Translations under genes and position numbers: made by a program
DNA from: an uncultured Methanosarcinales archaeon
GTDB taxonomy: Archaea > Nanobdellota > Nanobdellia > Woesearchaeales > UBA12501
Direction: 5' to 3'
NCBI GenBank assembly: GCA_964343705.1
Contig: CAYFJX010000008.1
Span: 447-64,446 of the forward strand
DNA: 64,000 nt
In this document: in pieces, positions 32,542 through 62,615 of the stretch
Layout of the letters: the number at the start of each line of letters is the position of its first letter
Numbering within the stretch: position 1 is the stretch's first letter
The notes under the pieces: model-generated
Database searches by the model: none
What the model was told of the DNA's origin: nothing
The model's input: only the letters and a program-made list of their open reading frames with translations

Positions 32542-32778
32542 TTAATAATCTTCAAATTCATCATCATATTCTTCGTCGTACTCTTCTTCAAACTCGAGTT
32601 CGTCATCATCCAATTCAACATAGTCGTCATACACTTCTTCTGCAGGCTCAAACATTTCATCAACAACTGCCATGCCGGTGATGTCATCAAAACCACCAAC
32701 CATATAAAGAAGTCCTCCTAAAAGCGCGATTACTAAAAATACATGACTTGCTCGATCATAATCAACCACGATAATCAC
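32542..32778 (-). CDS. 78-aa anchored poly-acidic protein (TM - ITGMAV - D/E/Y tail)
   Basis: N-terminal TM LVIALLGGLLYMVGG, motif DDITGMAVVDE, then about 45 aa that are roughly 70% Asp/Glu with interspersed Tyr. AGGTGA SD. Confidence 0.65.
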   Translation of the reverse strand: MIIVVDYDRASHVFLVIALLGGLLYMVGGFDDITGMAVVDEMFEPAEEVYDDYVELDDDELEFEEEYDEEYDDEFEDY

Positions 32779-32851
32779 CTGTTTTAATCCTTAGTGTCTT
32801 CAAGAACATTTAGATTTATAAAGTTTATGAAAAAGAAAAGAAAAAGAAGAA

Positions 32852-33097
32852 TTATTCACCTTCTTCCTCATACATTTCATCTTCTCCATACTCTTCGTCG
32901 TCTTCGTACATTTCTTCATCTTCGTACTCTTCTTCAAAGTCTTCGTCACCTGCATCATCGTAGACAGCAAGACCAGTTGCATCGTCTGAGCCAAATACAT
33001 CGCCCATGATACCACTGGTAAACAAACCTACAACAGCTACAGCTGCTAGCATAAGAAACAGAAAACGGTTTTCACTTCGTGAGTCTCGTCGTGTCAT
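32852..33097 (-). CDS. 81-aa anchored poly-acidic protein, paralogue of 32542-32778
   Basis: TM LFLMLAAVAVVGLFTSG, motif DDATGLAVYDD, D/E/Y tail. Upstream AAACTTTTTAAATGCCC box is shared with the 33196-35328 gene. Confidence 0.65.
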   Translation of the reverse strand: MTRRDSRSENRFLFLMLAAVAVVGLFTSGIMGDVFGSDDATGLAVYDDAGDEDFEEEYEDEEMYEDDEEYGEDEMYEEEGE

Positions 33098-33195
33098 ACT
33101 ATCACCTGTTAGTTTTTTATTGATTGTTTAAGATAATTAGTGCCTTGGGCATTTAAAAAGTTTGTGAAAAGAAAAAGAGAAAAGAAAAAAAAGGT

Positions 33196-35328
33196 TTATT
33201 TGCTGAGACAATCAGCCTTATCCTTGCACGGACCACAGGAGAAATCTTTGTAGCTAGTTACTTTGGAACCTTTTTCCATGAAACCAGTTCTCCTTGTAGT
33301 AACTGCACGTCGGATTTCTTTGAGTGTCTTTTTTTCCTGATACACACCATAATCAAACATGTAATGGGTGGATTCTTGAGGTTGGGTCCAGTGTACATCC
33401 CAATTTAGAGCTCTCCCCATGCCGTACATGTAACCCCTATTAAAGATTCCACGGGCATAAGGTTTTTCAGCACCCTGGAAGATCAATTTCTTGGAATCAG
33501 CAAGAACCACAATCTTACTTGCCTTGTCACTTGTACTACATGCCCAAGAACCTTTTACATCGCCTTTAGGTATGACTGCTTTCTTTGCCTCGTGGTGTAC
33601 AGAAACCAAGCCACCTTTGAAACAGTAGTTCTTACCTGGCCTGTTTTCACATGCTTGACAAGTCCAGGACTTACTAGGACCTGATCCTGGAACAGGGAAT
33701 CCTACCTCGTTATGACGTTTCCTAACAAGATCCAAGGCATGCTTTCCATTGTCAAGCTTGTCATAAATCTTGACTTTGTACATATGGCTAGAATCCATGT
33801 GGAACTCAGTGATGGTACTTCTGCCTCTCCATATGCCTGGCTTCATACCATCAAGTTCAATAGTTTTGAAAATGTCTTTGCTATTTTTTTGGTACCACTG
33901 CATTTTGATGTGACCTTTTGTGTACAATTTTTCAGTTTTACCAATGGCACGTGTTCCCACTTTATTATCCATCAAAAGAATAGCTTTATTCCCATCATAT
34001 TCACATCGTACACCTTTCTTGTACTCTGGATCTGGATACTTTTTACCTTCGCACTTCCCAACTTCGTCCCGGTGCTTTGCCCGTTTACATTTACCGCTTT
34101 TACATTGGTTGTTTCGGTCACAAGGACGATTGTCACTAAGAAGTGTGTCAACACACTTGTAAGAACCATAGAATTTCCCAGTTTTCCGACTGATGTACCT
34201 TCTGCAAATACCTTTTTTACATTCACGGTTTGCTTTACTAAGACATTTTTTACCTTTGTCTTTCTTAGTCATGGTACACTTACTGTTTTTACAAGTTAAC
34301 CACTTTTTACAGTCAAGAGTGCCTCCTTTCTTATTGGTTCTACATTTATTCCCTTCACCACCAGAGTATGGTTTCACACATGTTCCATAAGGACCACACA
34401 TCAAGCTTCGTTGACATTCTGGACCTTTTTTACAAGCTGAGCCTTCAGGTCCTGTTCCTTGAACTCCTTTTGGAATATCACCAGGCTTCACACAGTAACC
34501 GCTTTTGTATTCGAGTTTACTTTGACAAGCAACAGCCCGAGGAGCTTCCTGTTGTGATCCTTTTGCCAATGCACACTTTCCACCATCACAAAACATGGTA
34601 ATACATGACGCGTCTGCAGTACATGATTTACCATTGTATTTCAAACCACACTTGCCTTCTTTTCCTTTTTTAATATCACAGAATTTTGATACACACTGGC
34701 TGTTTGCAGTACACTTAGAGTCTAAAGCTTTTTTACCATTACCACCTTGGAATAGGAGCGTGGTAAGTTCAGCCCTAGTACCTTCAAACTCACCTGCACC
34801 AGAAACTGATCTTTTGGAGGAGGATTTCCGTTTTCCTTTTAGTTTACCTTTTATTTTTTTTCCAACTTTACTCTTCATAGCTTTTTGACAGAGTTCTTTC
34901 CGACTTTTCTTCTTCATACTCTTCTTAGTACAACATTTCTTAAAATTTTTCCCCACAGATTTTACAGTTTTACAAGAAGATTTTTTTGTTTTTGATTTTT
35001 TCTTCGCCTTTTTCTTTATAGATTTCTTAGCCTTCCTAAACGTTTTCTTAGCAAAGTTACCAGTGATAGCGTTTTCACCCTCATCTTCTTCAGCTTTTTC
35101 TTCCATTTCAGTTTCGTAATCGTATAATGCATCAGCGTACGACACCGCACCGGTCAAAGAATTCTCTCCTTCAAGCTCTTCTTCCATCTCAGTTTCATAG
35201 TCATACAATTCATCAGCGTATGAAACCATACCAGTCATTGTTTCGTTTGCTTCAAATGTGCCATTTACATACAAACCGCCAACTGCAACTAATGCTATTA
35301 CTAGTAGAAGAACTCGATTTTCATCCAT
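33196..35328 (-). CDS. 710-aa secreted modular protein: TM, acidic repeats, polybasic block, Cys-knot repeats, C-terminal beta domain
   Basis: ATG at 35328 after AAGGTGA (the track begins at a TTG 6 nt upstream). Repeats TGMVSYADELYDYETEMEE / TGAVSYADALYDYETEMEE, then about 100 aa of about 45% Lys/Arg, then more than 40 Cys in CX5-7C..G.C spacing. Confidence 0.8.
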   Translation of the reverse strand: MDENRVLLLVIALVAVGGLYVNGTFEANETMTGMVSYADELYDYETEMEEELEGENSLTGAVSYADALYDYETEMEEKAEEDEGENAITGNFAKKTFRKAKKSIKKKAKKKSKTKKSSCKTVKSVGKNFKKCCTKKSMKKKSRKELCQKAMKSKVGKKIKGKLKGKRKSSSKRSVSGAGEFEGTRAELTTLLFQGGNGKKALDSKCTANSQCVSKFCDIKKGKEGKCGLKYNGKSCTADASCITMFCDGGKCALAKGSQQEAPRAVACQSKLEYKSGYCVKPGDIPKGVQGTGPEGSACKKGPECQRSLMCGPYGTCVKPYSGGEGNKCRTNKKGGTLDCKKWLTCKNSKCTMTKKDKGKKCLSKANRECKKGICRRYISRKTGKFYGSYKCVDTLLSDNRPCDRNNQCKSGKCKRAKHRDEVGKCEGKKYPDPEYKKGVRCEYDGNKAILLMDNKVGTRAIGKTEKLYTKGHIKMQWYQKNSKDIFKTIELDGMKPGIWRGRSTITEFHMDSSHMYKVKIYDKLDNGKHALDLVRKRHNEVGFPVPGSGPSKSWTCQACENRPGKNYCFKGGLVSVHHEAKKAVIPKGDVKGSWACSTSDKASKIVVLADSKKLIFQGAEKPYARGIFNRGYMYGMGRALNWDVHWTQPQESTHYMFDYGVYQEKKTLKEIRRAVTTRRTGFMEKGSKVTSYKDFSCGPCKDKADCLSK

Positions 35329-35412
35329 CACCAATCACCTTTTTTCATTTTTTAGGAATATAAAAACCTTTTTTAAGAATTATGGGCATTTACCTTTAAA
35401 AAGTTTGTTAAA

Positions 35413-38400
35413 TCAAACCTTTAAACTCGTAACTTGACTCACACCATGCTCGTTCATGCTTACACCATACAAACGATCTGCTTCTGCAATAACAGCGTCG
35501 TTGTGAGTGATAACCACATACTGTGCATTGCCAGTGTATTTCCGAATGAGTTGGGCAAAGCGTTCTGAGTTTCTTTTGTCAAGAGCTGCGTCAACCTCAT
35601 CAAGTACGTAAAAGCTTGCTGGTTCGTGTTCTTGAATTGCGAAAATAAATGCTAGTGCAGTGAGTGTTTTCTCACCACCAGACAAGCTTCGAATATCAAG
35701 GAATCGTTTTCCAGACAATCGCACTTTAATCATTAATCCGCCATCAAAGGGACTTTCTGGATTTTCTAGGACAATAGAAGCATCCCCTTTTGTTGAGATA
35801 GCAGAGAATAATACTTTAAAGTTGTTATTAACAATGTCAAATGTTTTCATAAAGAGATTTTTCTTTTTAGTTTCAATCTCGTTCATCATAAGCAGGACAT
35901 CTTCTTTTTCCACAATGAGTTTTTCTTTTTTCTGTACAAGAGACGCATACTCCTTTTCAATACTTGTGTAAATCTCAAGTGCTTTCATGTTTACTGCGCC
36001 AAGCTTAGTAACCACACCTTCCCAAATGCCAATTTGCTTTCGTAACTCCGCTGCTGGCTTTTTCACAATTTCAATACCCTCATAGTCTTTGTATTCATGT
36101 TCAAGACCTGCAATCTCAGCATTAACACGTGATAGTTCAATAGAACTTGTATTGAGTCTCAGTTCAATCTTACGCACCTGCTCTCCAACTTCTTCCATTT
36201 TGCTTGTTTCTTTTTTGATAGATTCATCAAGCTTTCCTCGTTTTGCAAAGAGCTCTTTGAATTGTGCGTGGAATTTTTGTTGTGCTGTTTCTTTTTGCTT
36301 AAGCTCCACACCCTTGTCTTGCATAAGTTTGTCAAGAGCAGCAAGTTCTTCCTTAAAGTCTTCTTCTTCCTTGTCATGTTGTTTGATTATCTTAAGAATG
36401 TTTTCAAGCTCTGGCCTGAGGATTGTATCCATTTGCGCGTCAAGATTCTTTAGGTCTGACTCTCTTTGTAAACCTTCTTCCATGCTTTGCTTGCGCTTTT
36501 CTTCAAAAGCATTAAGTTCTGCAATAAGTGAGGGGTTACGCAGCTCAACAATTTTGTTTCGCATTTCTTGCTTCTTTATTCTGTTTTGTGCAAGAGTTCT
36601 GTTTTGTTCTTGAATGTCATCCTCAACTTTCCTAATGTCCTTTTCTGATTCTTCAAGTGCTTTCTCCAGTTCTTTTCGTACTTTCCTGTTTGCTTCTGTA
36701 TCTGCAGCGTCAATATTAAGCACTTTTTCAAGTTTGATTATGTCCCCTTCAAGGTCAGCTTTGAACTGTCGTAAGCGTGCAATGTTTTGTTCAAGGTCTT
36801 TTCGTTCTTTATCTATCCGGGATATAAGTAGCTCTGCGTCTTGCAAGATTTTTTCATATTTTTCTATGTCTGAAGTTACTTCTTTTTGTTGGAATCCAAT
36901 ACCTAGTCGTTTTCTGTAACCACCCTGCATAACTCCTGAGAGTTCACTAAGGTCACCGTCCAGACTGACCATTTTTACTTTACCCACTCCAATTCGTCGA
37001 GCAACATCAATACTGTCAACAACAAGGGTGTTACCAAACACGTGACTAAAAACAGTTTTGTACTTAGGATTAAATTGCAATAAGTCTATAGCAAGTCCAT
37101 GTACGCCATTTGCTTTTTTTAGTTCAGCGATACCTTGTGCTGGAGCTGCCCCTCTTATTTTGTTCATTGGAACAAAGCTAGCAACCCCAAACTTGTTTTC
37201 TTTAAGAAACTTAATACACTGCACAGCTGTCTTGTCACTGTCCACTACCACACTCTTTAATTTGGATCCTGCTGCGATTTCTAATGCTTTTGAGTATTTT
37301 GATTCAGCTGTACCAAGTTCTGAGACAGTCCCATGAATCCCTTGGATTGAACCTTTTTGTTTTTGTTCAAGAATCTTCTTTAATCCAAGATCTCTACCGA
37401 GCACTTCTTGAATAGAAAGGTTTTGTGCGCGCAGCTTACCAAGTTGCTCACTTGATGTTGCACGCTTTCCTCTTGCAGTATCGAGTTGTGCACATAGGTT
37501 ACTATCATGATTAATAAGTTTAGATAATTCTAAGGTTGACTTTTTGAATTCTTCTTTCTTTTGTTTCAGTTCTTTTACTTGTGCCTGGTTTTCTTTTTCA
37601 ACTTCAAGCACTTTTTGTATTTTTTCGTCAATAGACTGTATCTGAAACTCAATTTTGTCTTTTTCTCTGAGTAGTTCTTGTTGCTTTTGGCGCAGTTCAA
37701 GCATTGCCTTTTGTTTTTGTTCTGCTTCCTTGTCAAGCTCATCAACTTGTTTTTCAATATCTCCAACATTGTCAAGCTTGTTTTTTTTCTTGAAGTCAGC
37801 AATTTTTTGTTCTATAACTCCTCTGAGCTTTTGCTTTGCTGCAAGTTGTGCTTGAAGTTCTTTTTTGTTTTCTTCATGCTTCTTGATTTTTGATCCTAGC
37901 TCATCATGGTTTTCGCGAAGCTGCACCTTACGTTGTTTTATTTTAGAGATCTCATTTTTAACTGCTTCAACACGATTTTTTGATGAAGCAATGTCAACTT
38001 TTAGTTTTTCAACTTCTTTGTGGATTTCAACTTGGCCTTTTTCTCCCCGCTCTTCAACTTGTTTATTGATCCCGCTAATTTCTTCGCCAAAACCTTTTAT
38101 TTTCTCTTTTGATTCCAGAACTCTGTTTTGTTTTTCTTCAAGTTGTTGTTTTGTTTGTCCGCTTACCTTGGATAGTTTTTCTTTTTCTGTTTTTTTATCG
38201 ACCATTGTTGCATGTAACAATGATGCTTTGTTGACTTTAATTTTATGAGTAAGATCATTGTATTTTTGTGCTTGTTCTTTTTCCTTGCCAAGTTCTTGCA
38301 AATGCGTCTTTCGCTCTTTAAGGACTATGCCTGACTCTTTAAGTTTTTCCTCAACTTTGTTAAGCTCATTCACTGCCTTTTGTTTTTTTTCTTCATACAC

Positions 38401-40542
38401 TGAAATACCTGCAATCTCTTCAATTATAAGACGACGTTCTTCAGGAGGCATTTCTACAAAACGTACAATATCCCCTTGCAGGATTACATTGTAACCATTG
38501 GGGTTAATTCTAGCAAGAGAAAGAAGTTCTAGAATTTGTTGTCGTGTTCGCGTTTCATTATTAATCTTGTAAACACTATTTCCTTTTGGCTTTACAATAC
38601 GTGAGATTTTAACTTCATCTTCTTCTGTAGGAAAAATCTTTTTTTTGTTATCAAAGAAGATTGATACTTCCCCACTTTTTGCTGGTTTTTTTGATTTACC
38701 ACCATTATAGATGAGATTAGCAGATTTTTCTGTTCGTAATGCTTTTGCAGAACTTTTCCCAAGTACAAAACAGAGAGCGTCCAGGACATTACTATTATGA
38801 ACAAAGAAATTATTAGCAACAAAATTATGATCATTTTCTACGCAAAGATCATACACCCATTTTTCTTTAGATTGCATGCTTTCTAGTTCTACAATTTCAT
38901 CCCAGTAGATATCTGATGTTGAAATCGCTTGTAAGACAGAAAGGGTTTGCGATTGTACTCCTGTTAGTGTTGCAGTAGGTGTGAATAGTTGACTCATAAG
39001 CTGTTGAACACCTGACCGGCTAGGCAAACATTGATTATAACAGTACGCATCAAGTTTTGCAAATGTCTTCTTAGTTCTTTTAATATTAATTCTTAATTCA
39101 TGTGTTGCTTGTTTAATAAGAGCATTTACTTCAAGCAGATCAAGATTGGGATTAGTTTTTTTAGATTGTAAGTTTTCCAAGCGTTCTTGTTTTTTAGGGT
39201 GAGTAAACTGAACAAAGGAGTGAAATAATTTAAAGTTATCAACACCTGTTACAGTTATATGTTCATATTTCCCTGAGTAACCACTATTTGTTGCAATCTT
39301 AATAATGTCTTTTGATCTAAAGAGGATCCCTAAACGAAGAAGGATTGTTTTTATTCCTTGAGCAAGTTTTTTGCTCTTTGTTGTAATCTCAATGGAACTT
39401 TGAGAAACATATCCATCACCAGAATAAAGACCATCGAGTAGTGCACCAAGCTCTTCGGGACTACTGTGAGTTAAGAAAAGGTCAGTTATCTTCTTGTTTC
39501 CTGTTGCACCCAATGACATACCTAATTTGTGTAAAATAATTTGGGCAGGAATAGAGTAAGCCAGCACATCCCAACATCTTGATTTATATTCATTTACTGT
39601 TGCTCGCAAGTCAAAAACATCTTGAATAAGACTGTGATAGTCTGCAACTACTTCCTCACAGCCATTTGTAAACCAGATCTGGTTAGAGTTAGTAAGACGA
39701 CCTTCTGCAAGAAGATAGCCTAACAAGCGAGCAACTGAAGGACTATTTTTCCAGGGCATCTTGTAGGTTATCCTACTTGTTTTTGCTTTTATTCGAGGTA
39801 TAAGTGTCATGATGACATCATTGTCAAGACCTGCTTTCCTAAGGATTTTTACAAGATGAGCAAAGTTAATTGATTGCTCATCACAAAGACCTTTAAGAAC
39901 ATAAAAAGATATATCAAGCTCCTGTGCAAGCTGCTTTAGGGTTTTATTCTGTTTTATTCTCCCTAAAATTTCTTTAAATTTTGGATCGTAAGGAACATAG
40001 ATTCCATCTTCTGCAGTTATCTTATCAAGTAACTCATAGAATATTTTTGTCTTTGGTTGGACTGGCATTGAACGAGGTACAGCAACACGAACACCTTCTT
40101 GTAATTCGTCAGCTCGAATACTTTTAATTTTTGTTCCATCCATAACAAACAGAGGATGATATTCTGTTGCAGTAATTTCCCGTCCTGAACGTGTTCGTAT
40201 TCGCACTAATTTCTTGGGAGAAGTTCTTTTTACAAAGGATTGTACATGTCGAACCTTTGTCTTTAATGTTTCTGTATCTAAACAAAGTATTTTTACATCC
40301 CCCCCAAGAGCTAGTTCACCATCATCAATTGTTTGAGCACCTAACTTTTTGATATTGTTTTCAACTAGTTTTTGTATTTCAATTGAGGATCCATCAGCTA
40401 GTTGGACCTTAGTGTCACCAACCACACATTTTCCAGAACCATTTGGACCAAGGATAATATTGAATTTATCGCCAAATGGCATCTCGGTTCGCTTGGCAAA
40501 TGATTTGAAACCATGCATCAATATTTTGTTGATTTTTGTCAT
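35413..40542 (-). CDS. smc: SMC chromosome-segregation ATPase interrupted by an intein
   Basis: N-terminal FKSF...LGPNGSGK / SNVLDALCFVLG split Walker A, about 350+350 aa coiled coils, hinge (GIHGTVSELG..), C-terminal LSGGEKTLTALAFIFAIQ signature and FYVLDEVDAALD Walker B. The extein totals 1164 aa. Confidence 0.95.
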   Translation of the reverse strand: MTKINKILMHGFKSFAKRTEMPFGDKFNIILGPNGSGKCVVGDTKVQLADGSSIEIQKLVENNIKKLGAQTIDDGELALGGDVKILCLDTETLKTKVRHVQSFVKRTSPKKLVRIRTRSGREITATEYHPLFVMDGTKIKSIRADELQEGVRVAVPRSMPVQPKTKIFYELLDKITAEDGIYVPYDPKFKEILGRIKQNKTLKQLAQELDISFYVLKGLCDEQSINFAHLVKILRKAGLDNDVIMTLIPRIKAKTSRITYKMPWKNSPSVARLLGYLLAEGRLTNSNQIWFTNGCEEVVADYHSLIQDVFDLRATVNEYKSRCWDVLAYSIPAQIILHKLGMSLGATGNKKITDLFLTHSSPEELGALLDGLYSGDGYVSQSSIEITTKSKKLAQGIKTILLRLGILFRSKDIIKIATNSGYSGKYEHITVTGVDNFKLFHSFVQFTHPKKQERLENLQSKKTNPNLDLLEVNALIKQATHELRINIKRTKKTFAKLDAYCYNQCLPSRSGVQQLMSQLFTPTATLTGVQSQTLSVLQAISTSDIYWDEIVELESMQSKEKWVYDLCVENDHNFVANNFFVHNSNVLDALCFVLGKSSAKALRTEKSANLIYNGGKSKKPAKSGEVSIFFDNKKKIFPTEEDEVKISRIVKPKGNSVYKINNETRTRQQILELLSLARINPNGYNVILQGDIVRFVEMPPEERRLIIEEIAGISVYEEKKQKAVNELNKVEEKLKESGIVLKERKTHLQELGKEKEQAQKYNDLTHKIKVNKASLLHATMVDKKTEKEKLSKVSGQTKQQLEEKQNRVLESKEKIKGFGEEISGINKQVEERGEKGQVEIHKEVEKLKVDIASSKNRVEAVKNEISKIKQRKVQLRENHDELGSKIKKHEENKKELQAQLAAKQKLRGVIEQKIADFKKKNKLDNVGDIEKQVDELDKEAEQKQKAMLELRQKQQELLREKDKIEFQIQSIDEKIQKVLEVEKENQAQVKELKQKKEEFKKSTLELSKLINHDSNLCAQLDTARGKRATSSEQLGKLRAQNLSIQEVLGRDLGLKKILEQKQKGSIQGIHGTVSELGTAESKYSKALEIAAGSKLKSVVVDSDKTAVQCIKFLKENKFGVASFVPMNKIRGAAPAQGIAELKKANGVHGLAIDLLQFNPKYKTVFSHVFGNTLVVDSIDVARRIGVGKVKMVSLDGDLSELSGVMQGGYRKRLGIGFQQKEVTSDIEKYEKILQDAELLISRIDKERKDLEQNIARLRQFKADLEGDIIKLEKVLNIDAADTEANRKVRKELEKALEESEKDIRKVEDDIQEQNRTLAQNRIKKQEMRNKIVELRNPSLIAELNAFEEKRKQSMEEGLQRESDLKNLDAQMDTILRPELENILKIIKQHDKEEEDFKEELAALDKLMQDKGVELKQKETAQQKFHAQFKELFAKRGKLDESIKKETSKMEEVGEQVRKIELRLNTSSIELSRVNAEIAGLEHEYKDYEGIEIVKKPAAELRKQIGIWEGVVTKLGAVNMKALEIYTSIEKEYASLVQKKEKLIVEKEDVLLMMNEIETKKKNLFMKTFDIVNNNFKVLFSAISTKGDASIVLENPESPFDGGLMIKVRLSGKRFLDIRSLSGGEKTLTALAFIFAIQEHEPASFYVLDEVDAALDKRNSERFAQLIRKYTGNAQYVVITHNDAVIAEADRLYGVSMNEHGVSQVTSLKV
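38794..40428 (-). mobile_element. 545-aa intein with LAGLIDADG homing-endonuclease domain, inserted after GPNGSGK of SMC
   Basis: Starts CVVGDTKVQLADGS (block A); TATEYHP (block B); LAGLIDADG motifs LLGYLLAEGRL and LLDGLYSGDGYV; ends VYDLCVENDHNFVANNFFVHN followed by Ser +1. Confidence 0.9.
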
Positions 40543-40730
40543 AACAATCGCCTAAAAAACAGAAGTTATTTTGTGTCCCAACCCCTTTTTTGTGATGTCT
40601 TGTGCCTCATTCAAGAAGAAAAACTGTGAGAAGTCATATATAAAGGTAGCGTTTTTAAAATCACTTCGAGAAAAATAGAAATATTTATATACTCAGCTAC
40701 CTAGGTATTAAAAAGAGCATACTAAAAATA

Positions 40731-41261
40731 ATGTTCAATAGAGGTGACGAGATGGCTGATGATACAAACAAATACCTGCTTTCTATAGTTGCTGTTGTAG
40801 CCCTTACTGGTTTATTCTTGTTATTCATGCAAGGAGCTGAAGTTCCAGGAACAGAAGCTGCTACAGGTCTAGCAGTAGGATACAGCCCAGAATTTGGCGA
40901 AATTCCCAGCTTTGACGAGCAAGGTAATAAGATTTGTACAGGACGCGTACGAGGAGATAAAATCATTCCTGATTACATCAACGGATGTCAAGGTCCACAT
41001 TTAAAAATAAGAGACTGGAACAACCTACCTCCTGCAGTAAAAGCGTACTACAACAAAAAGCGTGTTGCTTACCGTCTAGTTGCACATGGTAACCCAGCAT
41101 ATGACTGGCCTGAACAAGCAGATGGTGACCTGCGAACTCTAAAAGCAGACCCTAGAATTGGCGGATCAGGATTACCAGACTCACCACCACCTAATGAAGT
41201 TGAAGTGGTTGAAGTTCTTGGTGCAGCACAACTTGGACGATCAGTATCAACACTGGTTTAA
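40731..41261 (+). CDS. 176-aa secreted protein with TM + ATGLAV N-terminal motif
   Basis: TM LLSIVAVVALTGLFLLFM, then EAATGLAVGYSPE. TTTATATA box about 40 nt upstream. No recognised domain. Confidence 0.6.
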   Translation: MFNRGDEMADDTNKYLLSIVAVVALTGLFLLFMQGAEVPGTEAATGLAVGYSPEFGEIPSFDEQGNKICTGRVRGDKIIPDYINGCQGPHLKIRDWNNLPPAVKAYYNKKRVAYRLVAHGNPAYDWPEQADGDLRTLKADPRIGGSGLPDSPPPNEVEVVEVLGAAQLGRSVSTLV

Positions 41262-41298
41262 AATTTTCTTTTTTTATTCTCTTTTTTTTAAGGATTCT

Positions 41299-41434
41299 AT
41301 TTAGAAATCTGAAAAAGGACACTAACAACCAAGTGGGCTTTTAAGATTGCACTTCCAAGATGTACTCTGACTGAAAGGAAGAGTACGGCCACATTTTGTC
41401 TCTTTTGTGTTAACAAAAGAGATTTAGAAATCTG
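41299..41434 (-). mobile_element. 110-nt hairpin element flanked by a 13-bp direct duplication (ATTTAGAAATCTG) at the rnhB stop codon
   Basis: Repeats at 41299-41311 and 41422-41434; the insert is homologous to 17807-17913. Confidence 0.55.
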
Positions 41435-42086: not shown

Positions 42087-42166
42087 AGTGTTAACACTAA
42101 GAAGTCTGTTTATATAGTTTATTCTTTTACAGGCTTGGCATTGTTTGTCTTTCTGAGGGATAGTGC

Positions 42167-42269
42167 AGCCTTGGAGTCTTTTCGCCAAAACGCCGATTCA
42201 TGCAGGCGTTTTGGCATTAAAACTGTCAGCTGGACGCTGACAGCCCTTACTCCGCTGCACTATCCCTCC
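42167..42269. other. 103-nt element closed by a perfect 15-bp inverted repeat, with two internal perfect hairpins
   Basis: GAGGGATAGTGCAGC ... GCTGCACTATCCCTC; internal stems CCAAAACGCC/GGCGTTTTGG and CTGTCAGC/GCTGACAG; lies between divergent rnhB and 42358. Confidence 0.5.
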
Positions 42270-42903: not shown

Positions 42904-42962
42904 ATAATATTCTTGTCAGAAAAAGATTTACTTTATAAATGTTCCTGTTTAAAAAAATAATA

Positions 42963-43595
42963 ATGAGTAAAGAGCTTGAAGATGAAAAATATGCTGAGAT
43001 TTCAGGAATTCTCTTAGGAGATGGTTGCATTACTCTTAAAGAGAACAATCCCAAATCAATAAATCGACTAAAAATCAGTCTAAATTCAGTTGATGACCTT
43101 GCTTACATTTACCATGTGAAAAAGTTACTGCAAGACACATGTGGAGAAGAAGCAAAAGTAAAAAATAGAAAGAATGAGAACACAACAGATATAATGATTT
43201 TTAAGAAAAAAGTAGTCTTATTTTTTATACAAGAGTTAGGGTTGCAGATTTCACCCAAATGGGAACGAGCTATTATCCCTGAAAGGTTCATGCAAGAAAA
43301 ACTTGATTTAAAAGTTTTACAAGGATATTTTGACACAGATGGTTGTTTAGTTACTGCAAATAACAATGGAACTATCTACCCTCGATTAGAAATGAAAGTA
43401 TGTCCCTCCCCCATGCAAAAACAGTTTATAGAAATACTGAAAAAATATGATTTTAGGTTTGGTGTTTATGAAATAGGAAATGGAGAAGTTAGAATCCAAT
43501 TGAATGGTAAAGAACAGTTAAGAAAATGGATTGGACTAGTTGGATTTAATAATAAAAAGCATAGTGAAAAAATAAAACGTTTTAATCTAAACTGA
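42963..43595 (+). CDS. free-standing LAGLIDADG homing endonuclease-like protein
   Basis: 210 aa from MSKELEDEKY; motifs ISGILLGDGCI and LQGYFDTDGCL. TTTATAAA box about 28 nt upstream of this ATG, so possibly leaderless. Confidence 0.8.
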   Translation: MSKELEDEKYAEISGILLGDGCITLKENNPKSINRLKISLNSVDDLAYIYHVKKLLQDTCGEEAKVKNRKNENTTDIMIFKKKVVLFFIQELGLQISPKWERAIIPERFMQEKLDLKVLQGYFDTDGCLVTANNNGTIYPRLEMKVCPSPMQKQFIEILKKYDFRFGVYEIGNGEVRIQLNGKEQLRKWIGLVGFNNKKHSEKIKRFNLN

Positions 43596-44703: not shown

Positions 44704-44704
44704 G

Positions 44705-48181: not shown

Positions 48182-48204
48182 GGTATCATTGATGAAATGG
48201 TTGC

Positions 48205-51201: not shown

Positions 51202-51228
51202 TTTGAATCACCTTGAGTTTCATGTTTT

Positions 51229-53715: not shown

Positions 53716-53716
53716 G

Positions 53717-56098: not shown

Positions 56099-56130
56099 TC
56101 TTTTTTTTATGTGTTGTTTTTTGCTTTTAC

Positions 56131-56144
56131 CATTTATAAAGTTT
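56131..56144 (-). promoter_or_regulatory. BRE/TATA-like box (minus-strand AAACTTTATAAATG) upstream of the 793-aa gene
   Basis: Lies about 35 nt upstream of the ATG at 56098. The same AAACTTTWTAAA core occurs upstream of genes starting at 33097, 35328, 5185, 59506 and 62615. Confidence 0.4.
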
Positions 56145-56146
56145 GT

Positions 56147-59100
56147 TTATTTTTTGCTTTGTTTTTGCTCCATTGCATATTGTTTTATTTCCCCATAGAA
56201 TAGTGGCATTCTAGTCTTAATCCGTGCAATTACTTCTTCTTCTGTGCCATCAAATAAGCCAGGAAGATAAGTACGTAGGATTGTTTCCATTGCTTCTTCA
56301 CTAATCTCTGATTTTGCCATGCCGTTTTCTACAAGCCAGACACCAAGTTCGTGTGAAAAGTCTTCTGCAATACTCAAGACAACTTCACCAACCTGATCTT
56401 CTTTTTTGGTGACTCCCATTTGATGTGCTACATAGCGGCCCCAAGCTAGACCAACTGGTTTTACAATCTCTGTTATGTCGCTTGATTTTTTCATAAGACG
56501 TGCTGTAGGCTTAGCACCATAATGATACCCAATCATATTGTACTTGTCCAGTTTTTGATCTGCAAAGTCAGCACTAGCTTTATGATGAGAATCAGGCATA
56601 AAACCTTGCCTGTTTAGCTCGGTGCAAACCACCTTACATTTTCCATTTTGACATCCTTTGGTACATTCAGCACCTTCACTACATGAAGCTCCCGTTGTCT
56701 TTTTTGCTGCACATTTTTTATTTGCACAATATAACCCTGCATCACAATCAGTGTGTGCAGAACATGACTCTCCTGCTTTCTTTTTTGGTGGAACATAACA
56801 TTTGTTGTTACGACACGTACCTGTTGAACAATCACCTGTTGTAGCACAATAACTATTTGGCGGAGCTTTGAAGTTATGACATGTCTTAGGAGCACCTTGT
56901 TGAGCTGGTCGACAAGAGTTGTAATTAAAATTCCAATCTTTACATTCATCATCAGTATTACACTCCCGTGGACCAGGTTTGTCCTCGCAAACTCCTTTGA
57001 ATTGTCCTTGCACTTTTGTTCGTTTACATTGTTTGTTTCGATCATCACAGTCCGGACTTTGCACACATTGTGAGTCTTCATGCACATCGAGACAGCTGGT
57101 TTCTTCTGTGTAACATACTTGGTTTTCACCACATTGATGACTGTATAAACATTTTTTAGAACACTTGTTGTTGTTACATTCCATAGGAGATTTGCAATCA
57201 GACTTTGCCTCACAATATTCACCTGCTTCCCCTGGAACAGGCCTACAAAGACGAGATAAAACAGCAGGATCATCTCCATACTGAATTAGATCCATACTAC
57301 ATGTCGCGCGACCATCGCAATCATCGTCTGTCACACATTGAGGTTGACCTCGGAATGAATAACACATACTTTCATGACATCCTTCACCTTCATTACAGTC
57401 ATCATCAGAAGCACAACCCTCATCAAGAACAGGTGTTGTTCCACCTTCTGTACACAGTCCAACAGTTGGATTACATGCAAGACCTGCATTTCGGTCACAG
57501 AGATCATTGATTACATCACATTCTTCACCTTCTCCAAGTTCACCTGGGCCACCAATGAGTCCGAGTGGTTCTCCACCTTGCATTGCTCGTACACCAGGTT
57601 CCCCTACAACAATTGTTGCTTGCATACTTTCCATTCCTTCATGAGGAATGCAGTAGTAAGGGAATGTTCCTGCAGTGTCAAAAGTGTGAGTAAATGTTGC
57701 TGATTGTGCCATCCAATCAGCTTGATCAGAACCAGAATCAAAACTACCATCTCGTGCAGTCACTGTATGTTTTGAGACATCATTATTAGTCCATACTACT
57801 GTGTCACCGACGTTAATAGTAAGTTCTTGAGGAGTAAAAGTAAAACTTTCAATAGCTATTTGATGTGTTTCCGCTTGATTACCTAAAAGCTGTAATTGAC
57901 CTTGTGCACATACACCACCTGCTTCGAGATTACATACACCACTTGCACAGTTACGGTTTTCACTACAATCCCCACCATCTTCAATAGCAACGCAAACACC
58001 GCCTTCACAAATATTTGATGCACACCTATCTGATGATGGACATGCTTGACCTGTTGCAATAAGTTCATCACCTTGCTCTGGTGGTTGATCTGGTGCTGGA
58101 GGTGGTTGATCACCAGGAGGTTGATCCCCCGGGGGTGCACCATCTGGAGCTGGTGGAGCACCGATTGCATTAGGGTCACCAATGCCAATACTTTGTGCAC
58201 CAAAGATGTTAAACTGGCCAGATTGTAGTGTAAAAATTCCTGAGAATGTGTACCAGCCTGGTGCAGCGTCAAGAGGAACTCTCACTGTGTAAGTAACTTC
58301 TTGTGACGAGGGAGCTTCCCCTATGCCACCTTCCATGTATAGTTTTCTGAAGAGGTTGTTTTCAACCGGCGCATTGTTTACAACTAATTGTAATCCTTCA
58401 GGCACTGTATCAGTAATAACAAGGGATTGTTCTTCACCTTGCTCATGAATAGCTAGTGTAACAGTAAACTCTCCACCAAGTGGAACAAATGCATTAGACA
58501 TTCGTCGTGTAACATAACTAGAATCTAGAGGAGGAGGTATTTGAGATGCTGCTGCCCTACATGATTTTATAAGAATTTGATACGTTCTTCCAACAGCGTC
58601 AGTGTAGTCACGTGCACTGCTTACAAGACAAACACCACCATCACATTCTGCGTCTGTTCTACATTCTGATTCCGCACCAATTTGTAAACAACGCAGATTG
58701 TAACATCCTTGTCCTTCTGCACATTGATCATCAGTTCTACATTGTCCGTCTGGAACAGGTGGTTGATCTTGTTGTTGTACTTCTGGAGGTTGTTCAGGCT
58801 CGCCTGGTTGTGCTGCAACACACACTTTCTCCTGACAGGTTAAACCATCTCCACAATCATCAACATACTCGCACGCGCCACCTGCAAGAACAGTATAACA
58901 GCGACGGCCAAGACCATTCATTTTATCTACACAGCCTTTGTTAGCATCAGCAACAGTGCAGTCTTCGTTTGAATCACACCGCAGAAGATTAGTACAGTCA
59001 CCATCTTGACAGCCACATTTTATTATGTTTATTTGCGCGTCTTTTCCAGAACAAACATTTTTAATAAGTTTTTTTGACGACGGTACTGTTTGATAATTCA

Positions 59101-59506
59101 TGTCACTACAGCCACTTTTAAGACCTTGAAGATTACCATTGGCAAGCGTCAATGAAACAATGCCATTTTGCGAGGAACATGCTTGACCTTGTAAAAGAAA
59201 ACTTCTGAGTGTGCTTGCAGGTTTTTTAGTTACTGTTGCACACGTTGTTTTTTTGGTTGCTTTTTGTGCTATTTCAAAGGGCCCTGTTTGGCCAAGGAGC
59301 ATAACCCCACTTGTTTGTGCAGCGTTAGCACTGCATTCCGCATCAGGACGTGCAATCACTTGCCCAGTGATCCCTACTGGACTGTATATAACTGAAATTG
59401 CTCCGAAAACAACAATAAGAAACGCTGCAATGAGTGCAGGATTATTATATCTGGACAGAGTACTCTGAAGTCTACCAACTAATCCCCTTTTTTGTGGTTT
59501 TTTCAT
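56147..59506 (-). CDS. 1119-aa secreted modular protein containing a cupredoxin (amicyanin/plastocyanin-like) domain
   Basis: N-terminus KRGLVGRLQSTLSRYNN-TM-VGITGQVI. One beta-sandwich module (about 58178-58513). Cupredoxin at about 57602-57868 with ligand pattern H(KHTV)...C-I-P-H-E-G-M. C-terminal CTELNRQG domain (about 56150-56626). Confidence 0.85.
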   Translation of the reverse strand: MKKPQKRGLVGRLQSTLSRYNNPALIAAFLIVVFGAISVIYSPVGITGQVIARPDAECSANAAQTSGVMLLGQTGPFEIAQKATKKTTCATVTKKPASTLRSFLLQGQACSSQNGIVSLTLANGNLQGLKSGCSDMNYQTVPSSKKLIKNVCSGKDAQINIIKCGCQDGDCTNLLRCDSNEDCTVADANKGCVDKMNGLGRRCYTVLAGGACEYVDDCGDGLTCQEKVCVAAQPGEPEQPPEVQQQDQPPVPDGQCRTDDQCAEGQGCYNLRCLQIGAESECRTDAECDGGVCLVSSARDYTDAVGRTYQILIKSCRAAASQIPPPLDSSYVTRRMSNAFVPLGGEFTVTLAIHEQGEEQSLVITDTVPEGLQLVVNNAPVENNLFRKLYMEGGIGEAPSSQEVTYTVRVPLDAAPGWYTFSGIFTLQSGQFNIFGAQSIGIGDPNAIGAPPAPDGAPPGDQPPGDQPPPAPDQPPEQGDELIATGQACPSSDRCASNICEGGVCVAIEDGGDCSENRNCASGVCNLEAGGVCAQGQLQLLGNQAETHQIAIESFTFTPQELTINVGDTVVWTNNDVSKHTVTARDGSFDSGSDQADWMAQSATFTHTFDTAGTFPYYCIPHEGMESMQATIVVGEPGVRAMQGGEPLGLIGGPGELGEGEECDVINDLCDRNAGLACNPTVGLCTEGGTTPVLDEGCASDDDCNEGEGCHESMCYSFRGQPQCVTDDDCDGRATCSMDLIQYGDDPAVLSRLCRPVPGEAGEYCEAKSDCKSPMECNNNKCSKKCLYSHQCGENQVCYTEETSCLDVHEDSQCVQSPDCDDRNKQCKRTKVQGQFKGVCEDKPGPRECNTDDECKDWNFNYNSCRPAQQGAPKTCHNFKAPPNSYCATTGDCSTGTCRNNKCYVPPKKKAGESCSAHTDCDAGLYCANKKCAAKKTTGASCSEGAECTKGCQNGKCKVVCTELNRQGFMPDSHHKASADFADQKLDKYNMIGYHYGAKPTARLMKKSSDITEIVKPVGLAWGRYVAHQMGVTKKEDQVGEVVLSIAEDFSHELGVWLVENGMAKSEISEEAMETILRTYLPGLFDGTEEEVIARIKTRMPLFYGEIKQYAMEQKQSKK

Positions 59507-59535
59507 TATCCCGTTTAAAAATAGAGCTATTTCCT

Positions 59536-59550
59536 TTTATATAGTTTGTG
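59536..59550 (-). promoter_or_regulatory. BRE/TATA-like box (minus-strand CAAACTATATAAAAGG) upstream of the 1119-aa gene
   Basis: About 30-40 nt upstream of the ATG. The flanking 50 nt align with the upstream region of the 1009-aa gene (62616-62670). Confidence 0.4.
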
Positions 59551-59585
59551 TTTTGGTGAATAGAAAGTGAAAAGAAGAGCCTAAT

Positions 59586-62500
59586 TTAAATGAAAGCATG
59601 CCATGGATACTCTTTCACACAATAACTATTTACGCAGACAAGATCACCATTACATTCTCCAGCTGAACATGGCATGTTAAAACCATTACGTTCAAGATCC
59701 CCTTCTCCAGTACCATCTATGCATTGGTTGTAGATACATTTACCCTTTACACACTCTTTATCATTACTACAAAACATACCAATACCTGCAAGACAGCGCA
59801 TTCCTGCTTGATCACTTGCTTGACAAGTGTACCCCATCTCACATTGTTTATTTATGAAACAGTAATCAGTTGCCCCCCCTGCATTCTGCCTATAGCTTAT
59901 CTCTTCACTTACAGCGTCAGCATAGGCACCACTTGAGTCAGTGTTAAGCTGGATAGTTACATCCCTCACATTAAAGCCCATGGTTGAAATTCGTTCTATG
60001 GTGAATGCGTCATGAGTATTTCCCCAATTACCAGTTGAATCGCTTCCCGCAAGAATTTTTACTGTGTTGGTTTCTCCTGATCGAAGGCGTTCACGAGGAA
60101 TAACAACATGTACTGCACGTTCTTGCCCGTCTTTTAGAACAGGGTCATTTCCTTGCACATAAATTTGTTTGTTCATACGATATACATAGTCAGAATCTTC
60201 AGCAGGATTTTTTACAAAGTAAGTTACAAATTGTCCTGCCCTGTATGCAAGGCTGTTACTACTAACTAAACCTTTTGTAGCAACATTAAAGACCAATTGA
60301 TCAGACCCTTCATTGATATACGGATCAAAAGTAATAATTGCTTCTTTCACCCCATTAGGTCCAAATTCAATTGCATCATTTACCAGTACTGGCTGGCCTA
60401 GTGTTTCTTGAAGTTCTCTTCGTGCTTCAGCTTCAGCTTCAGCAGCAGCTTGCCGTTGTCGTTCTTCAGCAGCTGCACGCTCGGCTTCAGCTTGCCCTTG
60501 CATTTCAGCAAATCCTTCTTCACTAAAAATACATGCCTTGCTTGCAGGATTACAGGTTAAGCCAGGTTTACATCGCGCATAGCCTTCACCACATGGGTGA
60601 CCAAAGTCTCCTGAAGGTGTTCCTTCACAAATGCCTTCCCCTGGACCTTCTTTTTTACATATGCCACTGTCACAATCATTGTGATAGTTACATGCACCAC
60701 CTATTGGACTTACACACCTGTTAAATCCTGGGCCTAATTTTTTACATATACCTGTTGCACATTGCTCGTTTCCTCGACAATCACTACCAAACTGCATTGT
60801 TTGACATGATCCTTGCCAGCAGAAGTTTGATTGACATTGTGCAAAGCTTTGACATGCTTCACCTTCTGATTTCCCTGAACAAGCACCATTGTCACATTTT
60901 TTAGTCATACACATGTCATCTGCAATGTTCATAAACTGGTTTTTAGGTGTGTTCATGTGTGCTTTTTGCTCGTCAGTTGGCATGAAACATTCCATCCCAG
61001 CAGGTCTTAATTCACATTCTTCAGATTTACTGTTACAATAACCAAGAACACATTGTTCATCTATTGCACACCGTCGTCCAAGTTGTTGTGGCTTACATGT
61101 TTTATCAGGACTCACACCTGTGAAGTCTCCGTTTTCATCAAATAAGTTGTCACCAGCGCATTTACCACTGAAACATTCTTTTGCTGTGGAACATGCTTCG
61201 CCATTTGGCTTGCCACCACATGCTCCGTCAATACATTGATTTGAATCGCATTGTTCATTAGTGTCACAAGGGAAGGTTACAGGTCGTAAACGACATTGGG
61301 ATTTACAATACCCTGTAAGACATTGCTCGTGACGGTCACATGCTTTTCCTTTTGCAACCATTTCACACTTTTGCGTTTTTCGATTACACATCCCTTGAAT
61401 ATGCCCTTTACAATCCCTACTTGTTTTACATGCAATGTCTGGTAGGTCTGGTCGTTGTGCAGGTGGAGCTGGCAAGCCAGCAATAGTAAGTTTGTAATCT
61501 CCTGCAATATCAGTTTGCCCGCTTTGCAGTGTTCGTTTTCCAATAAAGATGTAGTCTCCACCAATAACATCTTGAGGGATTTCGACTTCATACGTAAACT
61601 TTGTTGACTCAACAGTGCCTGTTAAACCGTCGACAATTGCTTTTCTGTAATTGTTTGCTGGAGCACGCTTACCATCTTTTAATAATTCTAATCCAGTTGG
61701 CACTTGCTCATTAATAATAAGAGAGGGTTCTTGCCCAACTTCCTGGAAATGTAACGTAACAGTAACTTTGCTTCCAGGTGCAGGTGTTTTAGTGTTAAAA
61801 GTTCGTGAAAGGAGTGACTTTCCAGGTGGTGCTTGAGCTGCTTGGCCCACAACTGGTTCTTTTACAGGTTCCTTAGCTGGTGGAGGTGAAGGAGCTACTG
61901 CAACAAGAGGAGCTTCACCACTTGTACAAATATTATTAATACAGTTTAATTCACCAACGCAATCATCAAGAAAATGACAAGCAGCACCTTCTTGGAGATA
62001 ACATCTTTTGCCAAGGCCATTTCCTTTGTCTACACATTCACTTTGCGCATTTTGTACTCTGCAATCTTCTGTTGCAGCGCACTGCTTTAAGTTTTTACAG
62101 TCGCCATTGTCACAATCACATCCAATAATGTTTAGTTTGACGTCTTTATTATCATTATAACAAAAAGATTTTACCAGCTTAGCTGATGTTGCAGCTTCAG
62201 CATATCCTGCTGCTGTACACCCACTTTTGAATCGTTTCTTTGTGCCTCCCTCAAGTGTGAGTGTAAGAATTCCTGCAGCATCTTCACACAGTTCACCAAG
62301 TAACAAAAAACTTTTTACTGACGCGGCAGGGTAATTTTCTTGTTGACCACAACTGTTTTGCTTACTCATTTTACCAGCAACAGCATACGGTCCCGCTTGG
62401 CCAAGAAGCATAACACCGGTTGCAGTTCCACCTACAGCAGTACATTCTCCTGCAGGTCGTGCAATGGCTTTACCTGTAATACCAATAGGACCATACATCA

Positions 62501-62615
62501 AAGAAAACAAGCCAACTCCAATAATAAAAACAGCAGCAATTACAGCAAGATTGTTGTACCTGGATAAAGTACTCTTAAGACTATCACCTAACCCTCTTTT
62601 TGCTGTCTGTTTCAT
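59586..62615 (-). CDS. 1009-aa secreted modular protein, N-terminal 230 aa paralogous to the 1119-aa protein
   Basis: N-terminus KRGLGDSLKSTLSRYNN-TM-IGITGKAI; one beta-sandwich module (LSRTFNT..SKVTVTLHF..SLIINEQVPTGLELL); Cys knots; AEAERAAAEERQRQAAAEAEAEARRELQ helix followed by a Cys-free beta domain. Confidence 0.85.
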   Translation of the reverse strand: MKQTAKRGLGDSLKSTLSRYNNLAVIAAVFIIGVGLFSLMYGPIGITGKAIARPAGECTAVGGTATGVMLLGQAGPYAVAGKMSKQNSCGQQENYPAASVKSFLLLGELCEDAAGILTLTLEGGTKKRFKSGCTAAGYAEAATSAKLVKSFCYNDNKDVKLNIIGCDCDNGDCKNLKQCAATEDCRVQNAQSECVDKGNGLGKRCYLQEGAACHFLDDCVGELNCINNICTSGEAPLVAVAPSPPPAKEPVKEPVVGQAAQAPPGKSLLSRTFNTKTPAPGSKVTVTLHFQEVGQEPSLIINEQVPTGLELLKDGKRAPANNYRKAIVDGLTGTVESTKFTYEVEIPQDVIGGDYIFIGKRTLQSGQTDIAGDYKLTIAGLPAPPAQRPDLPDIACKTSRDCKGHIQGMCNRKTQKCEMVAKGKACDRHEQCLTGYCKSQCRLRPVTFPCDTNEQCDSNQCIDGACGGKPNGEACSTAKECFSGKCAGDNLFDENGDFTGVSPDKTCKPQQLGRRCAIDEQCVLGYCNSKSEECELRPAGMECFMPTDEQKAHMNTPKNQFMNIADDMCMTKKCDNGACSGKSEGEACQSFAQCQSNFCWQGSCQTMQFGSDCRGNEQCATGICKKLGPGFNRCVSPIGGACNYHNDCDSGICKKEGPGEGICEGTPSGDFGHPCGEGYARCKPGLTCNPASKACIFSEEGFAEMQGQAEAERAAAEERQRQAAAEAEAEARRELQETLGQPVLVNDAIEFGPNGVKEAIITFDPYINEGSDQLVFNVATKGLVSSNSLAYRAGQFVTYFVKNPAEDSDYVYRMNKQIYVQGNDPVLKDGQERAVHVVIPRERLRSGETNTVKILAGSDSTGNWGNTHDAFTIERISTMGFNVRDVTIQLNTDSSGAYADAVSEEISYRQNAGGATDYCFINKQCEMGYTCQASDQAGMRCLAGIGMFCSNDKECVKGKCIYNQCIDGTGEGDLERNGFNMPCSAGECNGDLVCVNSYCVKEYPWHAFI

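Follow-up and report, generated by a model that had tools for sequence, protein, structure and literature searches.

In a lineage of Woesearchaeota (DPANN archaea), a second class of surface proteins starts with a full-length hydrophobic helix followed by a short box built around Thr-Gly, an N-terminus that fits no described signal peptide, lipobox, pilin or sorting signal. We describe it in a 64,000-nucleotide stretch of DNA from an uncultured archaeon (contig CAYFJX010000008.1; hereafter the window) and in relatives of this organism. The TG-box module, which comprises a basic n-region, the helix, a spacer and the box, exists as a non-random feature; it is conserved in orthologues across family-level relatives, is found on unrelated ectodomains, contains the only membrane segment of the proteins that carry it, and is unlike the N-termini of a neighboring class of surface proteins, which have ordinary signal peptides ending in AxA (the AxA class). 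The module may mark an undescribed anchoring or processing route.

The twelve genes between positions 32542 and 62615 were translated, and eight TG-class N-termini were read directly from them:

32665-32778, minus strand: module of the 78-aa acidic protein, with n-region, helix VFLVIALLGGLLYMVGGF, spacer DD and box ITGMAV (32665-32682)
32963-33097, minus strand: module of the 81-aa acidic protein, with an RR/ENR n-region, helix FLFLMLAAVAVVGLFTSGIMG, spacer DVFGSDD and box ATGLAV (32963-32980)
35221-35334, minus strand: module of the 712-aa protein (710 aa in the first-pass annotation), with helix VLLLVIALVAVGGLYV, spacer NGTFEANET and box MTGMVS (35221-35238)
35050-35157, minus strand: extra boxes in the acidic Tyr-rich repeats of the 712-aa protein, LTGAVS (35140-35157) and ITGNFA (35050-35067)
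40731-40877, plus strand: module of the 176-aa protein, with helix YLLSIVAVVALTGLFLLFM, spacer QGAEVPGTEA and box ATGLAV (40860-40877)
53575-53715, minus strand: module of the 828-aa protein, with a K-rich n-region, helix YMVLVIVLVGLLALY, spacer QVWGEEINTA and box ITGQQV (53575-53592)
55886-56098, minus strand: module of the 793-aa protein, with a 35-aa K-rich n-region, helix TLFFVAVLALMAASLFLL, spacer ESNEIVLVEEPS and box VSGLAV (55886-55903)
59354-59506, minus strand: module of the 1119-aa cupredoxin-domain protein, with a 22-aa n-region, helix PALIAAFLIVVFGAISVIY, SPVG and box ITGQVI (59354-59371)
62463-62615, minus strand: module of the 1009-aa protein, a paralogue of the 1119-aa protein, with helix LAVIAAVFIIGVGLFSLMY, GPIG and box ITGKAI (62463-62480)

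A first-pass annotation, made from the letters of the window, had noted this common layout in the same eight proteins, and all eight translations match the residues that it quoted. The two repeats of the box that it reported in the 712-aa protein are those listed above, at residues 60-65 and 90-95, and the AxA signals that it assigned to the 365-, 1171- and 998-aa proteins read VLA/A, VLA/A and AHA/V (the slash marks the predicted cut). The layout was thus right, but the annotation was incomplete, as it missed both the conservation of the helix and a ninth case about 3 kb past the end of the window, a 794-aa LamG protein (L001 158-2542, minus strand) with the start MEKRVTFISVLLVLAVGLFYTGAFTGMVVN and the box FTGMVV. 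The gene adjoining this one encodes a transglutaminase-core protein with a classic signal (..SLQVSA/VDE).

The helix consensus is taken from an alignment of twelve N-termini, the composition of the box from 21 non-redundant sites. The n-region is basic and 4-35 aa long, its last residue being K or R in most proteins (K, R or N in the alignment). The hydrophobic core that follows spans 15-25 aa (median 19) and has a consensus of its own, ..(L/V)A(V/A)V(A/G)xG-L-(F/Y); conservation is thus not confined to the box. A polar or acidic spacer of 0-13 residues (median 8) leads to the box, whose general form is Phi-T-G-x-(A/V/T)-(V/I/S). Its G (position 0) is invariant (21/21) and is preceded by T in 20 sites and by S in one; position -4 is D or E in 11/21, position -2 is I, L, P, T, A, M, V or F, and position +1 is L, M, K, F, Q or R, while position +2 is mostly A (9 of 21), V (7) or T (3) and position +3 mostly V (12 of 21), I (3) or S (3).

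This arrangement differs from that of the AxA class in the same genomes (n=7). Counted from where the hydrophobic core begins, the T of the box comes after a median of ~27 aa, and the module lacks a helix-breaking Pro; AxA-class signals are cut after 14-22 aa (median 17) by the same count, with Ala at -1 in 7/7 and Pro at about -5 or -6 in most. Because the TG-class helix is longer than the AxA-class signals, and distances to box or cut and Pro and Ala patterns differ as well, the two classes are physically distinct.

The motif is not placed at random. In the window and two flanking genes, the strict motif of the first-pass annotation, [IAV][TS]G.[AVQ][VI], has 7 matches among the 616 residues located after N-terminal hydrophobic segments and one among the 19,914 others (0.03 expected, Poisson P = 5e-15), and the looser core [TS]G.[AVQT][VITS] has 10 matches against 0.31 expected; these P values are optimistic, since the motif was defined after the data were seen. 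Two checks are independent of that choice. In the first, an annotation-free six-frame scan of the 64 kb that asks for the core motif with a 15-residue window of mean hydropathy >=2.3 at most 40 codons upstream, the eight genes are returned, along with one antisense-frame artefact and nothing else. In the second, the same scan gives, per 100 kb, 14 matches in the window, 14.6 in the relative L118 (introduced below), 0.77 in 67 other DPANN loci around the V-ATPase operon (1.03 Mb), chosen to sample the proteomes of relatives, and 0.76 in bacterial loci. In the eight genes, the codons of the box differ synonymously, both for T (ACC/ACT/ACA/TCA) and for G (GGC/GGT/GGA/GGG); the box is therefore conserved as protein and not as DNA, and a DNA-level repeat was rejected.

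The 1119-aa protein and an alignment of a 125-aa domain shared by several array proteins found no homologues in 5.8 billion proteins; as the large array proteins are without detectable homologues, conservation was tested on other members. One relative is L118, a 165-kb contig of the Woesearchaeota metagenome-assembled genome (MAG) that carries P0023 (MDO8642749.1). It is syntenic with the window (DHH, EamA, PIG-L, GT, then SMC, a 169-aa protein, RNase HII, a 134-aa protein and the surface array) and has 57-66% identity to it in housekeeping proteins; a closer relative, L121, has ~82%. Between the 176-aa protein and P0023 the box is retained (ATGLAVGY and TTGLAVGY) and the spacer differs. T-G is likewise kept, with the length or sequence of the spacer changed, between the 81-aa protein and P0014, between the 78-aa protein and P0022 (box ITGFSV), and between the N-termini of the 828-aa protein and a 347-aa protein of L118 (..LFALYVIWQDEINALTGRVA). 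In six orthologue pairs, percent identities of module and rest are 91/72 (81-aa protein vs P0014, module through the box vs tail), 83/65, 72/66, 45/51, 48/50 and 49/56; the module is thus as conserved as the rest of the protein, or more so. The split into two classes recurs in L118, with three TG-class proteins (GDGTTGFVA, DGTTGLAV and DEINALTGRVA) and two AxA-class proteins, and L121 retains both acidic mini-proteins.

These mini-proteins belong to a group of three neighboring genes (32542-35334, minus strand; L121 1098-1769) that consist of helix, TG box and an extremely acidic, Tyr-rich tail: the 78-aa protein, the 81-aa protein and the 712-aa protein up to residue 90, where the latter changes to a Lys-rich block and Cys-rich repeats. 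The tails change faster than the module yet remain acidic, and the box returns at repeat boundaries; P0014, a relative, holds a similar second box (LTGDVV) to the extra ones of the 712-aa protein. In this position the box looks like a repeated processing or binding unit.

The LamG family extends the comparison. Its seven DPANN-type members have helix and xTGxxV directly before a conserved mature start, SRYxQLKxC; the archaeal-type orthologues, at 37-49% identity, read LLTGFTV (P0003), FPTGLAV and SLTGLTV (paralogues of L088), FPTGLAV (P0004/L096/L097) and GLTGKVT (P0006/L099). L100 has helix and box (TITGKTS), but a different Cys-rich module after the box. In this family helix and box are 0 to 11 residues apart, and the scattered carriers sit on contigs of 27-44% GC. 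More distant LamG homologues have, at the same junction, either a lipobox Cys (P0005, P0008, P0009) or an AxA site (P0010, L101, L105-L109).

In none of 20 TG-class proteins is there a second membrane segment; the N-terminal helix is the sole one. Among the AxA-class proteins, a C-terminal helix with a basic tail behind it is present in those of 365 and 1171 aa and in the L118 protein of 1130 aa, while the 998-aa protein and the 378-aa protein of L118 have no such helix at the end and share a twin repeat instead. Since the TG class has no second segment and its AxA neighbors have either a C-terminal helix or the twin repeat, each surface protein appears to have one means of attachment, which for the TG class is the N-terminal helix. 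The C-terminal transmembrane helices comprise residues 252-268 of the 365-aa protein (43606-44703, minus strand), 1004-1020 of the 1171-aa protein (44705-48220, minus strand) and 1002-1018 of the 1130-aa protein (L118 13647-17039, minus strand); the cytoplasmic tail that follows bears KPGFMDKLKxFFKKKP twice in the 1171-aa protein. The twin repeat, D..(M/L)EL(L/S)M(F/Y)I..W, ends the 998-aa, the 828-aa and the 378-aa proteins (48205-48310, minus strand; 51229-51340, minus strand; L118 17045-17160, minus strand). It is dockerin-like by eye, but Pfam does not support this assignment, giving no dockerin match even at E <= 10.

The ectodomains of the TG class are extracellular in character: the 1119-aa protein has a cupredoxin domain and the 794-aa protein a LamG domain, which a structure search confirmed, and there are also Cys-rich repeats and extremely acidic Tyr-rich tails. 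With the module removed, the 1119-, 1009- and 793-aa proteins are interrelated and the 712-aa protein is weakly related to the 1009-aa protein; the others are unrelated. As little relatedness thus remains, the module is carried by at least six unrelated ectodomain types, and the sharing of one module by many unrelated proteins is the criterion by which sorting-signal domains are recognized (10.1101/2023.06.07.544157). In an AlphaFold2 (AF2) model, the box lies in a linker between the helix and the first folded module, with a predicted local distance difference test (pLDDT) score below 50 at residues 15-30, in a model built from a shallow alignment of 10 sequences. A role of the box as part of a common folded domain was rejected, since the sequences downstream are unrelated and AF2 places the box in a linker.

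Further domains were noted in the surface proteins. In the 794-aa protein, the C-terminal LamG domain is joined to a helical domain (motif RPLFTNFxDGTNGWY) whose conservation extends from DPANN to bacteria; in its AF2 model the N-terminal ~450 aa are mostly alpha-helical, next to a beta-sandwich, and PDB fold matches cover the LamG part only. The 793- and 1119-aa proteins share a C-terminal domain of ~210 aa (53717-54350 and 56147-56790, both minus strand) that is not Cys-rich, is 53% identical between them and has no Pfam match. A repeat domain of ~125 aa (TRSFS..VTVTL..EEQSLIINE..P.GL...TY.V.IP) is found in the 365-, 1171- (three copies), 1009-, 1119- and 998-aa proteins (43606-62615, minus strand).

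Long n-regions and long hydrophobic regions (h-regions) are a hallmark of uncleaved signal anchors as opposed to signal peptides (PMC11579918). Because the TG class has such long regions, has no other anchor, conserves its helix and is equivalent to lipobox homologues that are tethered N-terminally, a retained signal anchor is favored. The near-invariant T-G, its independence of spacer length, its recurrence in acidic tails and its place in a low-confidence linker of the AF2 model argue in turn for a site that is read by an enzyme or partner rather than for a piece of a fold. From these two bodies of evidence we adopt, tentatively and while regarding it as somewhat short of probable, the reading of a tripartite signal-anchor module in which the TG box serves as an extracytoplasmic recognition site, with maturation or shedding by proteolysis as its most likely purpose. 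We infer Sec dependence, topology and helix retention, as well as any cleavage or enzyme, in the following form: the helix would direct the protein to the Sec translocon and insert N-in/C-out, acting as a signal anchor rather than as a standard cleaved signal peptide; the box, on a flexible spacer just outside the membrane, would be recognized by an extracytoplasmic factor; and this factor, most likely a peptidase other than the housekeeping signal peptidase, would mature or shed the ectodomain at or beside T-G. Alternatively, the ectodomain might be passed to another attachment. The first-pass annotation had suggested a dedicated processing, anchoring or recognition site, for example for a protease or sortase. 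Its recognition part is supported: the distinct and orthologue-conserved layout, the unrelated exported proteins that carry it, the drift of the spacer and the position of the box at the cleavage or lipidation junction of other lineages all argue for a recognition site. Its protease or sortase part is left without a peptidase gene in the window.

Several observations weigh against the reading of a signal anchor with a recognition site. The window contains no peptidase gene that could serve as a candidate enzyme. SPase I (signal peptidase I) could be the enzyme, since Phi-T-G is compatible with the -3/-1 rule, which it fits in about 17/21 sites. With a spacer as variable as this (0-13 aa), an active site held at one set distance from the membrane, like that of sortase/exosortase-type systems, is hard to reconcile. 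Sharing of the module is in part due to common descent, because several helices look homologous, and the AF2 evidence comes from only 10 aligned sequences. The module was also seen in few lineages. When 1.84 billion representatives were searched with a 42-position profile of the module, 18 matches had E <= 1e-3, namely the training sequences, the orthologues P0014 (81-aa family), P0022 (78-aa family), P0021 and P0023 (176-aa family), P0025, and four junk repeat proteins (P0013, P0019, P0020, P0026); at this threshold it reached close relatives only, with a profile too specific for divergent members (held-out paralogues reach just 26-28 bits). Scans of IMG/VR gave no matches. The 71 single-pass proteins of the 67 other DPANN loci include one or two candidate modules, TTTGLAI (L031 2835-3308) and PITGFYL (L068 17021-17692), but these ATPase neighborhoods say little on the spread of the module because they hold few exported proteins, mostly with lipobox and class III N-termini.

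The serious rival is an ordinary Sec signal with a lineage-specific c-region, in which the proteins are released by a cut directly behind Phi-T-G, made by the housekeeping SPase I or by a second Sec11 paralogue, and the enzyme and membrane of this archaeon simply tolerate the long core and the spacer; we consider this possible, though on the whole unlikely. Numbered from such a cut, G occupies -1 in 21/21 sites, -3 is I, L, V, A or T in about 17/21 and Pro never occurs at +1, which is compatible with the -3/-1 rule (PMC11579918); archaea can have two SPase I paralogues, possibly for subsets of substrates (PMC6098224), SipW of Bacillus is a dedicated archaeal-type SPase for TasA (PMC10269814), and in the LamG family the box occupies the position of the AxA and lipobox sites of other lineages. 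However, a median of 8 aa (13 at most) separates the site from a core of 15-25 aa, and n-regions are as long as 35 aa, all of which are signal-anchor features, and the TG modules have neither the Ala at -1 (7/7) nor the Pro near -5 or -6 of the AxA sites in the same genomes. The rule also leaves T at -2 (20/21; S in 1/21) and the preference for A/V at +2 and V/I at +3 unexplained, and -3 is P in 3/21 sites and F in 1/21. Furthermore, conservation of the module equals or exceeds that of the mature part (91/72, 83/65, 72/66); TG-class proteins would end up without an anchor while their AxA neighbors keep theirs; and the box recurs far from the membrane, inside the acidic tails of two proteins, which is not expected of a membrane-bound SPase I site.

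An uncleaved type II anchor without any proteolysis, in which the TG box is a structural or interaction element (a turn and short beta-strand that docks the stalk to the S-layer or a partner, or an O-glycosylated Thr), strikes us as improbable. It accords with the signal-anchor-like n- and h-regions and with the helix as sole membrane segment, whose sequence is conserved as expected if it is kept in the mature protein; the alternating hydrophobic residues after G would suit a short strand (AF2 places two-residue strands at 28-29 and 32-33, at low confidence), and the lipobox homologues are likewise tethered N-terminally. But the sequences that come after the box (Cys-rich modules, a helical hairpin, acidic disordered tails) are unrelated to each other, and the box is therefore not part of a common fold; AF2 leaves it outside any domain, and a strict T-G with small flanking residues resembles an enzyme site more than an interface. 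That the box has no function at all, arising by chance or through inheritance of one duplicated exon-like N-terminal segment without selection on it, is already disfavored and very improbable indeed: although the 1119-, 1009- and 793-aa proteins are paralogues, several helices are alike and the motif is degenerate and defined post hoc, the within-genome P is about 1e-12 to 1e-15, the frequency is ~19-fold above that of other loci, T-G is kept in relatives at 57-82% identity and in LamG orthologues at 45-50% identity while the adjacent spacer is rewritten, its codons vary synonymously, and the module is common to six unrelated ectodomains.

Attachment to other cells is the way of life of DPANN archaea, and the contact is presumed to be made by their surface proteins, which are large, rich in Cys and quick to evolve; to our knowledge, the export and cell attachment of these proteins are essentially unstudied. 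The module provides an N-terminal tag, searchable by hidden Markov models, that splits the surface proteome into proteins with an AxA signal and a C-terminal helix and proteins with a TG-box N-terminal anchor. It thus offers a handle for predicting the exposed proteome of uncultured Woesearchaeota, and a bait for the cognate enzyme via phylogenetic profiling, which is how exosortase, archaeosortase and myxosortase were found. Should the box serve for cleavage or transfer, it would define a sorting route of new topology; should it be only a variant SPase I site, signal-peptide predictors trained on AxA sites would probably take these proteins for plain membrane proteins.

The sequence covered amounts to ~70 kb of the source genome (window and flank) and 20 kb of L118. 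The window is archaeal, from a Woesearchaeota MAG, and contains an A/V-type ATPase operon (5185-14629), whose AtpA is 74-75% identical to the nearest species representatives, all of them Woesearchaeota/Nanoarchaeota MAGs; identical contigs belong to ENA metagenome project PRJEB17505. AtpA has a Lys/Arg-rich N-terminal extension of ~45 aa (9895-10030, plus strand) that is absent from most relatives, in which tblastn matches begin at query residue 40-50. The SMC gene (35413-40542, minus strand) is split by an intein, which carries a LAGLIDADG endonuclease and sits in the P-loop after GPNGSGKC; the orthologue in L118 (1164 aa) has none. Two free-standing open reading frames (ORFs) for LAGLIDADG endonucleases lie at 29007-29845 and 42939-43595, the first overlapping the 3' side of an opposite-strand tRNA gene (29747-29845; 99 nt, presumably intron-bearing, called by Rfam but not by ARAGORN). 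Genes of mobile or defense type (3810-4783, 18536-19616, 26414-26728 and 27570-28529) comprise a ParE-like toxin, a DDE transposase (DUF772 and DDE_Tnp_1) and two nucleotidyltransferases; a HEPN gene comes after one of these (18536-19616) and an unannotated 147-aa ORF after the other (3810-4783).

Among known signals, no Pfam or NCBIfam signal model matches the module (NCBIfam with full proteins at E <= 0.1 and with ten isolated N-termini at E <= 10), and literature searches in an incomplete library turned up no description of an N-terminal motif of this kind in DPANN or Woesearchaeota. The geometry of cleaved Sec/SPase I signals, with an h-region of ~7-15 aa and a c-region of 3-7 aa, is not that of the TG class. 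Class III (prepilin/archaellin) and lipobox signals are N-terminal and have a hydrophobic stretch, like the TG class, and both occur in the same genome (a class III-like pilin N-terminus of KAQAS type at 2831-3343 and a lipobox signal, LTSGC, at 2354-2824). In class III signals, however, the hydrophobic stretch comes after the cleavage motif [K/R]-G/A, whereas in every TG-class protein the helix comes before the box, and the lipobox [LVI][ASTG][GA]C requires an invariant Cys, whereas none of the 21 sites has Cys in or beside the box; the module is thus neither of the two, as the first-pass annotation had stated. A Tat signal (S/T-R-R-x-F-L-K) was rejected, since RR occurs only in the 81-aa protein (TRRDSR), with no FLK after it, and is lost in the orthologue P0014 (MARDSR). 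Rhomboid substrates of the type described by Strisovsky have a large hydrophobic P4, a small P1 and a hydrophobic P2'; this motif was rejected as well, as P1 at G gives A, G, D, T or S at P4 in 18/21 sites and P1 at +2 gives T.

Two bacterial systems also define subclasses of exported proteins by motifs at the N-terminus. Motifs inside the N-terminal signal, YSIRK/G-S and KxYKxGKxW, define trafficking subclasses of Gram-positive surface proteins (PMC11370438); these motifs are bacterial only, lie in the n-region before the core and go with ordinary SPase I cleavage, whereas the TG box follows the helix. As a parallel to a genome that has another signal class next to AxA, the SipW-cognate signals (TasA/TapA, TIGR04088) come closest: a dedicated archaeal-type signal peptidase, SipW, serves a subset of exported Bacillus proteins with a short motif after the hydrophobic region (PMC10269814). 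The TG class differs in its motif (Phi-T-G-x-A-V), in placing the box up to 13 aa past a full-length helix, and in having no TIGR04088 match even at E <= 10; the SipW-cognate motif is G-T-x-A-x-F-x-D. No SipW-like gene was seen in the sequence covered (~70 kb and 20 kb of L118). With type II signal anchors the TG class shares the basic n-region, a hydrophobic segment of ~20 aa, an N-in/C-out orientation predicted from charge, and the sole membrane segment, but generic signal anchors have no conserved sequence, whereas the TG class has a helix consensus and a near-invariant T-G across unrelated proteins.

C-terminal tripartite sorting signals consist of a short motif outside, a transmembrane helix and a basic cluster inside, and are often the only thing that many proteins of a genome share (10.1101/2023.06.07.544157; PMC11980579). 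Like those of LPXTG/sortase, PGF-CTERM/archaeosortase, PEP-CTERM/exosortase, GlyGly-CTERM and MYXO-CTERM, the TG module joins a motif, a helix and a K/R cluster on unrelated proteins; box, helix and K/R n-region occur together on nine proteins in ~70 kb, with at least six unrelated ectodomain types. T-G is also the scissile pair of LPXTG. The module differs in being N-terminal, in the reversed direction of the helix relative to the motif, in its variable spacer, and in having no LPx, Cys, PGF or PEP; it resembles these signals by analogy only and is not a member of them. A bolder reading, which we hold to be quite unlikely, is that the TG box could be their first N-terminal counterpart, a mirror-image tripartite tag at which a membrane-associated enzyme of the Woesearchaeota would cut at T-G and then either release the ectodomain or covalently re-attach it to lipid, the S-layer or the surface of the host cell.

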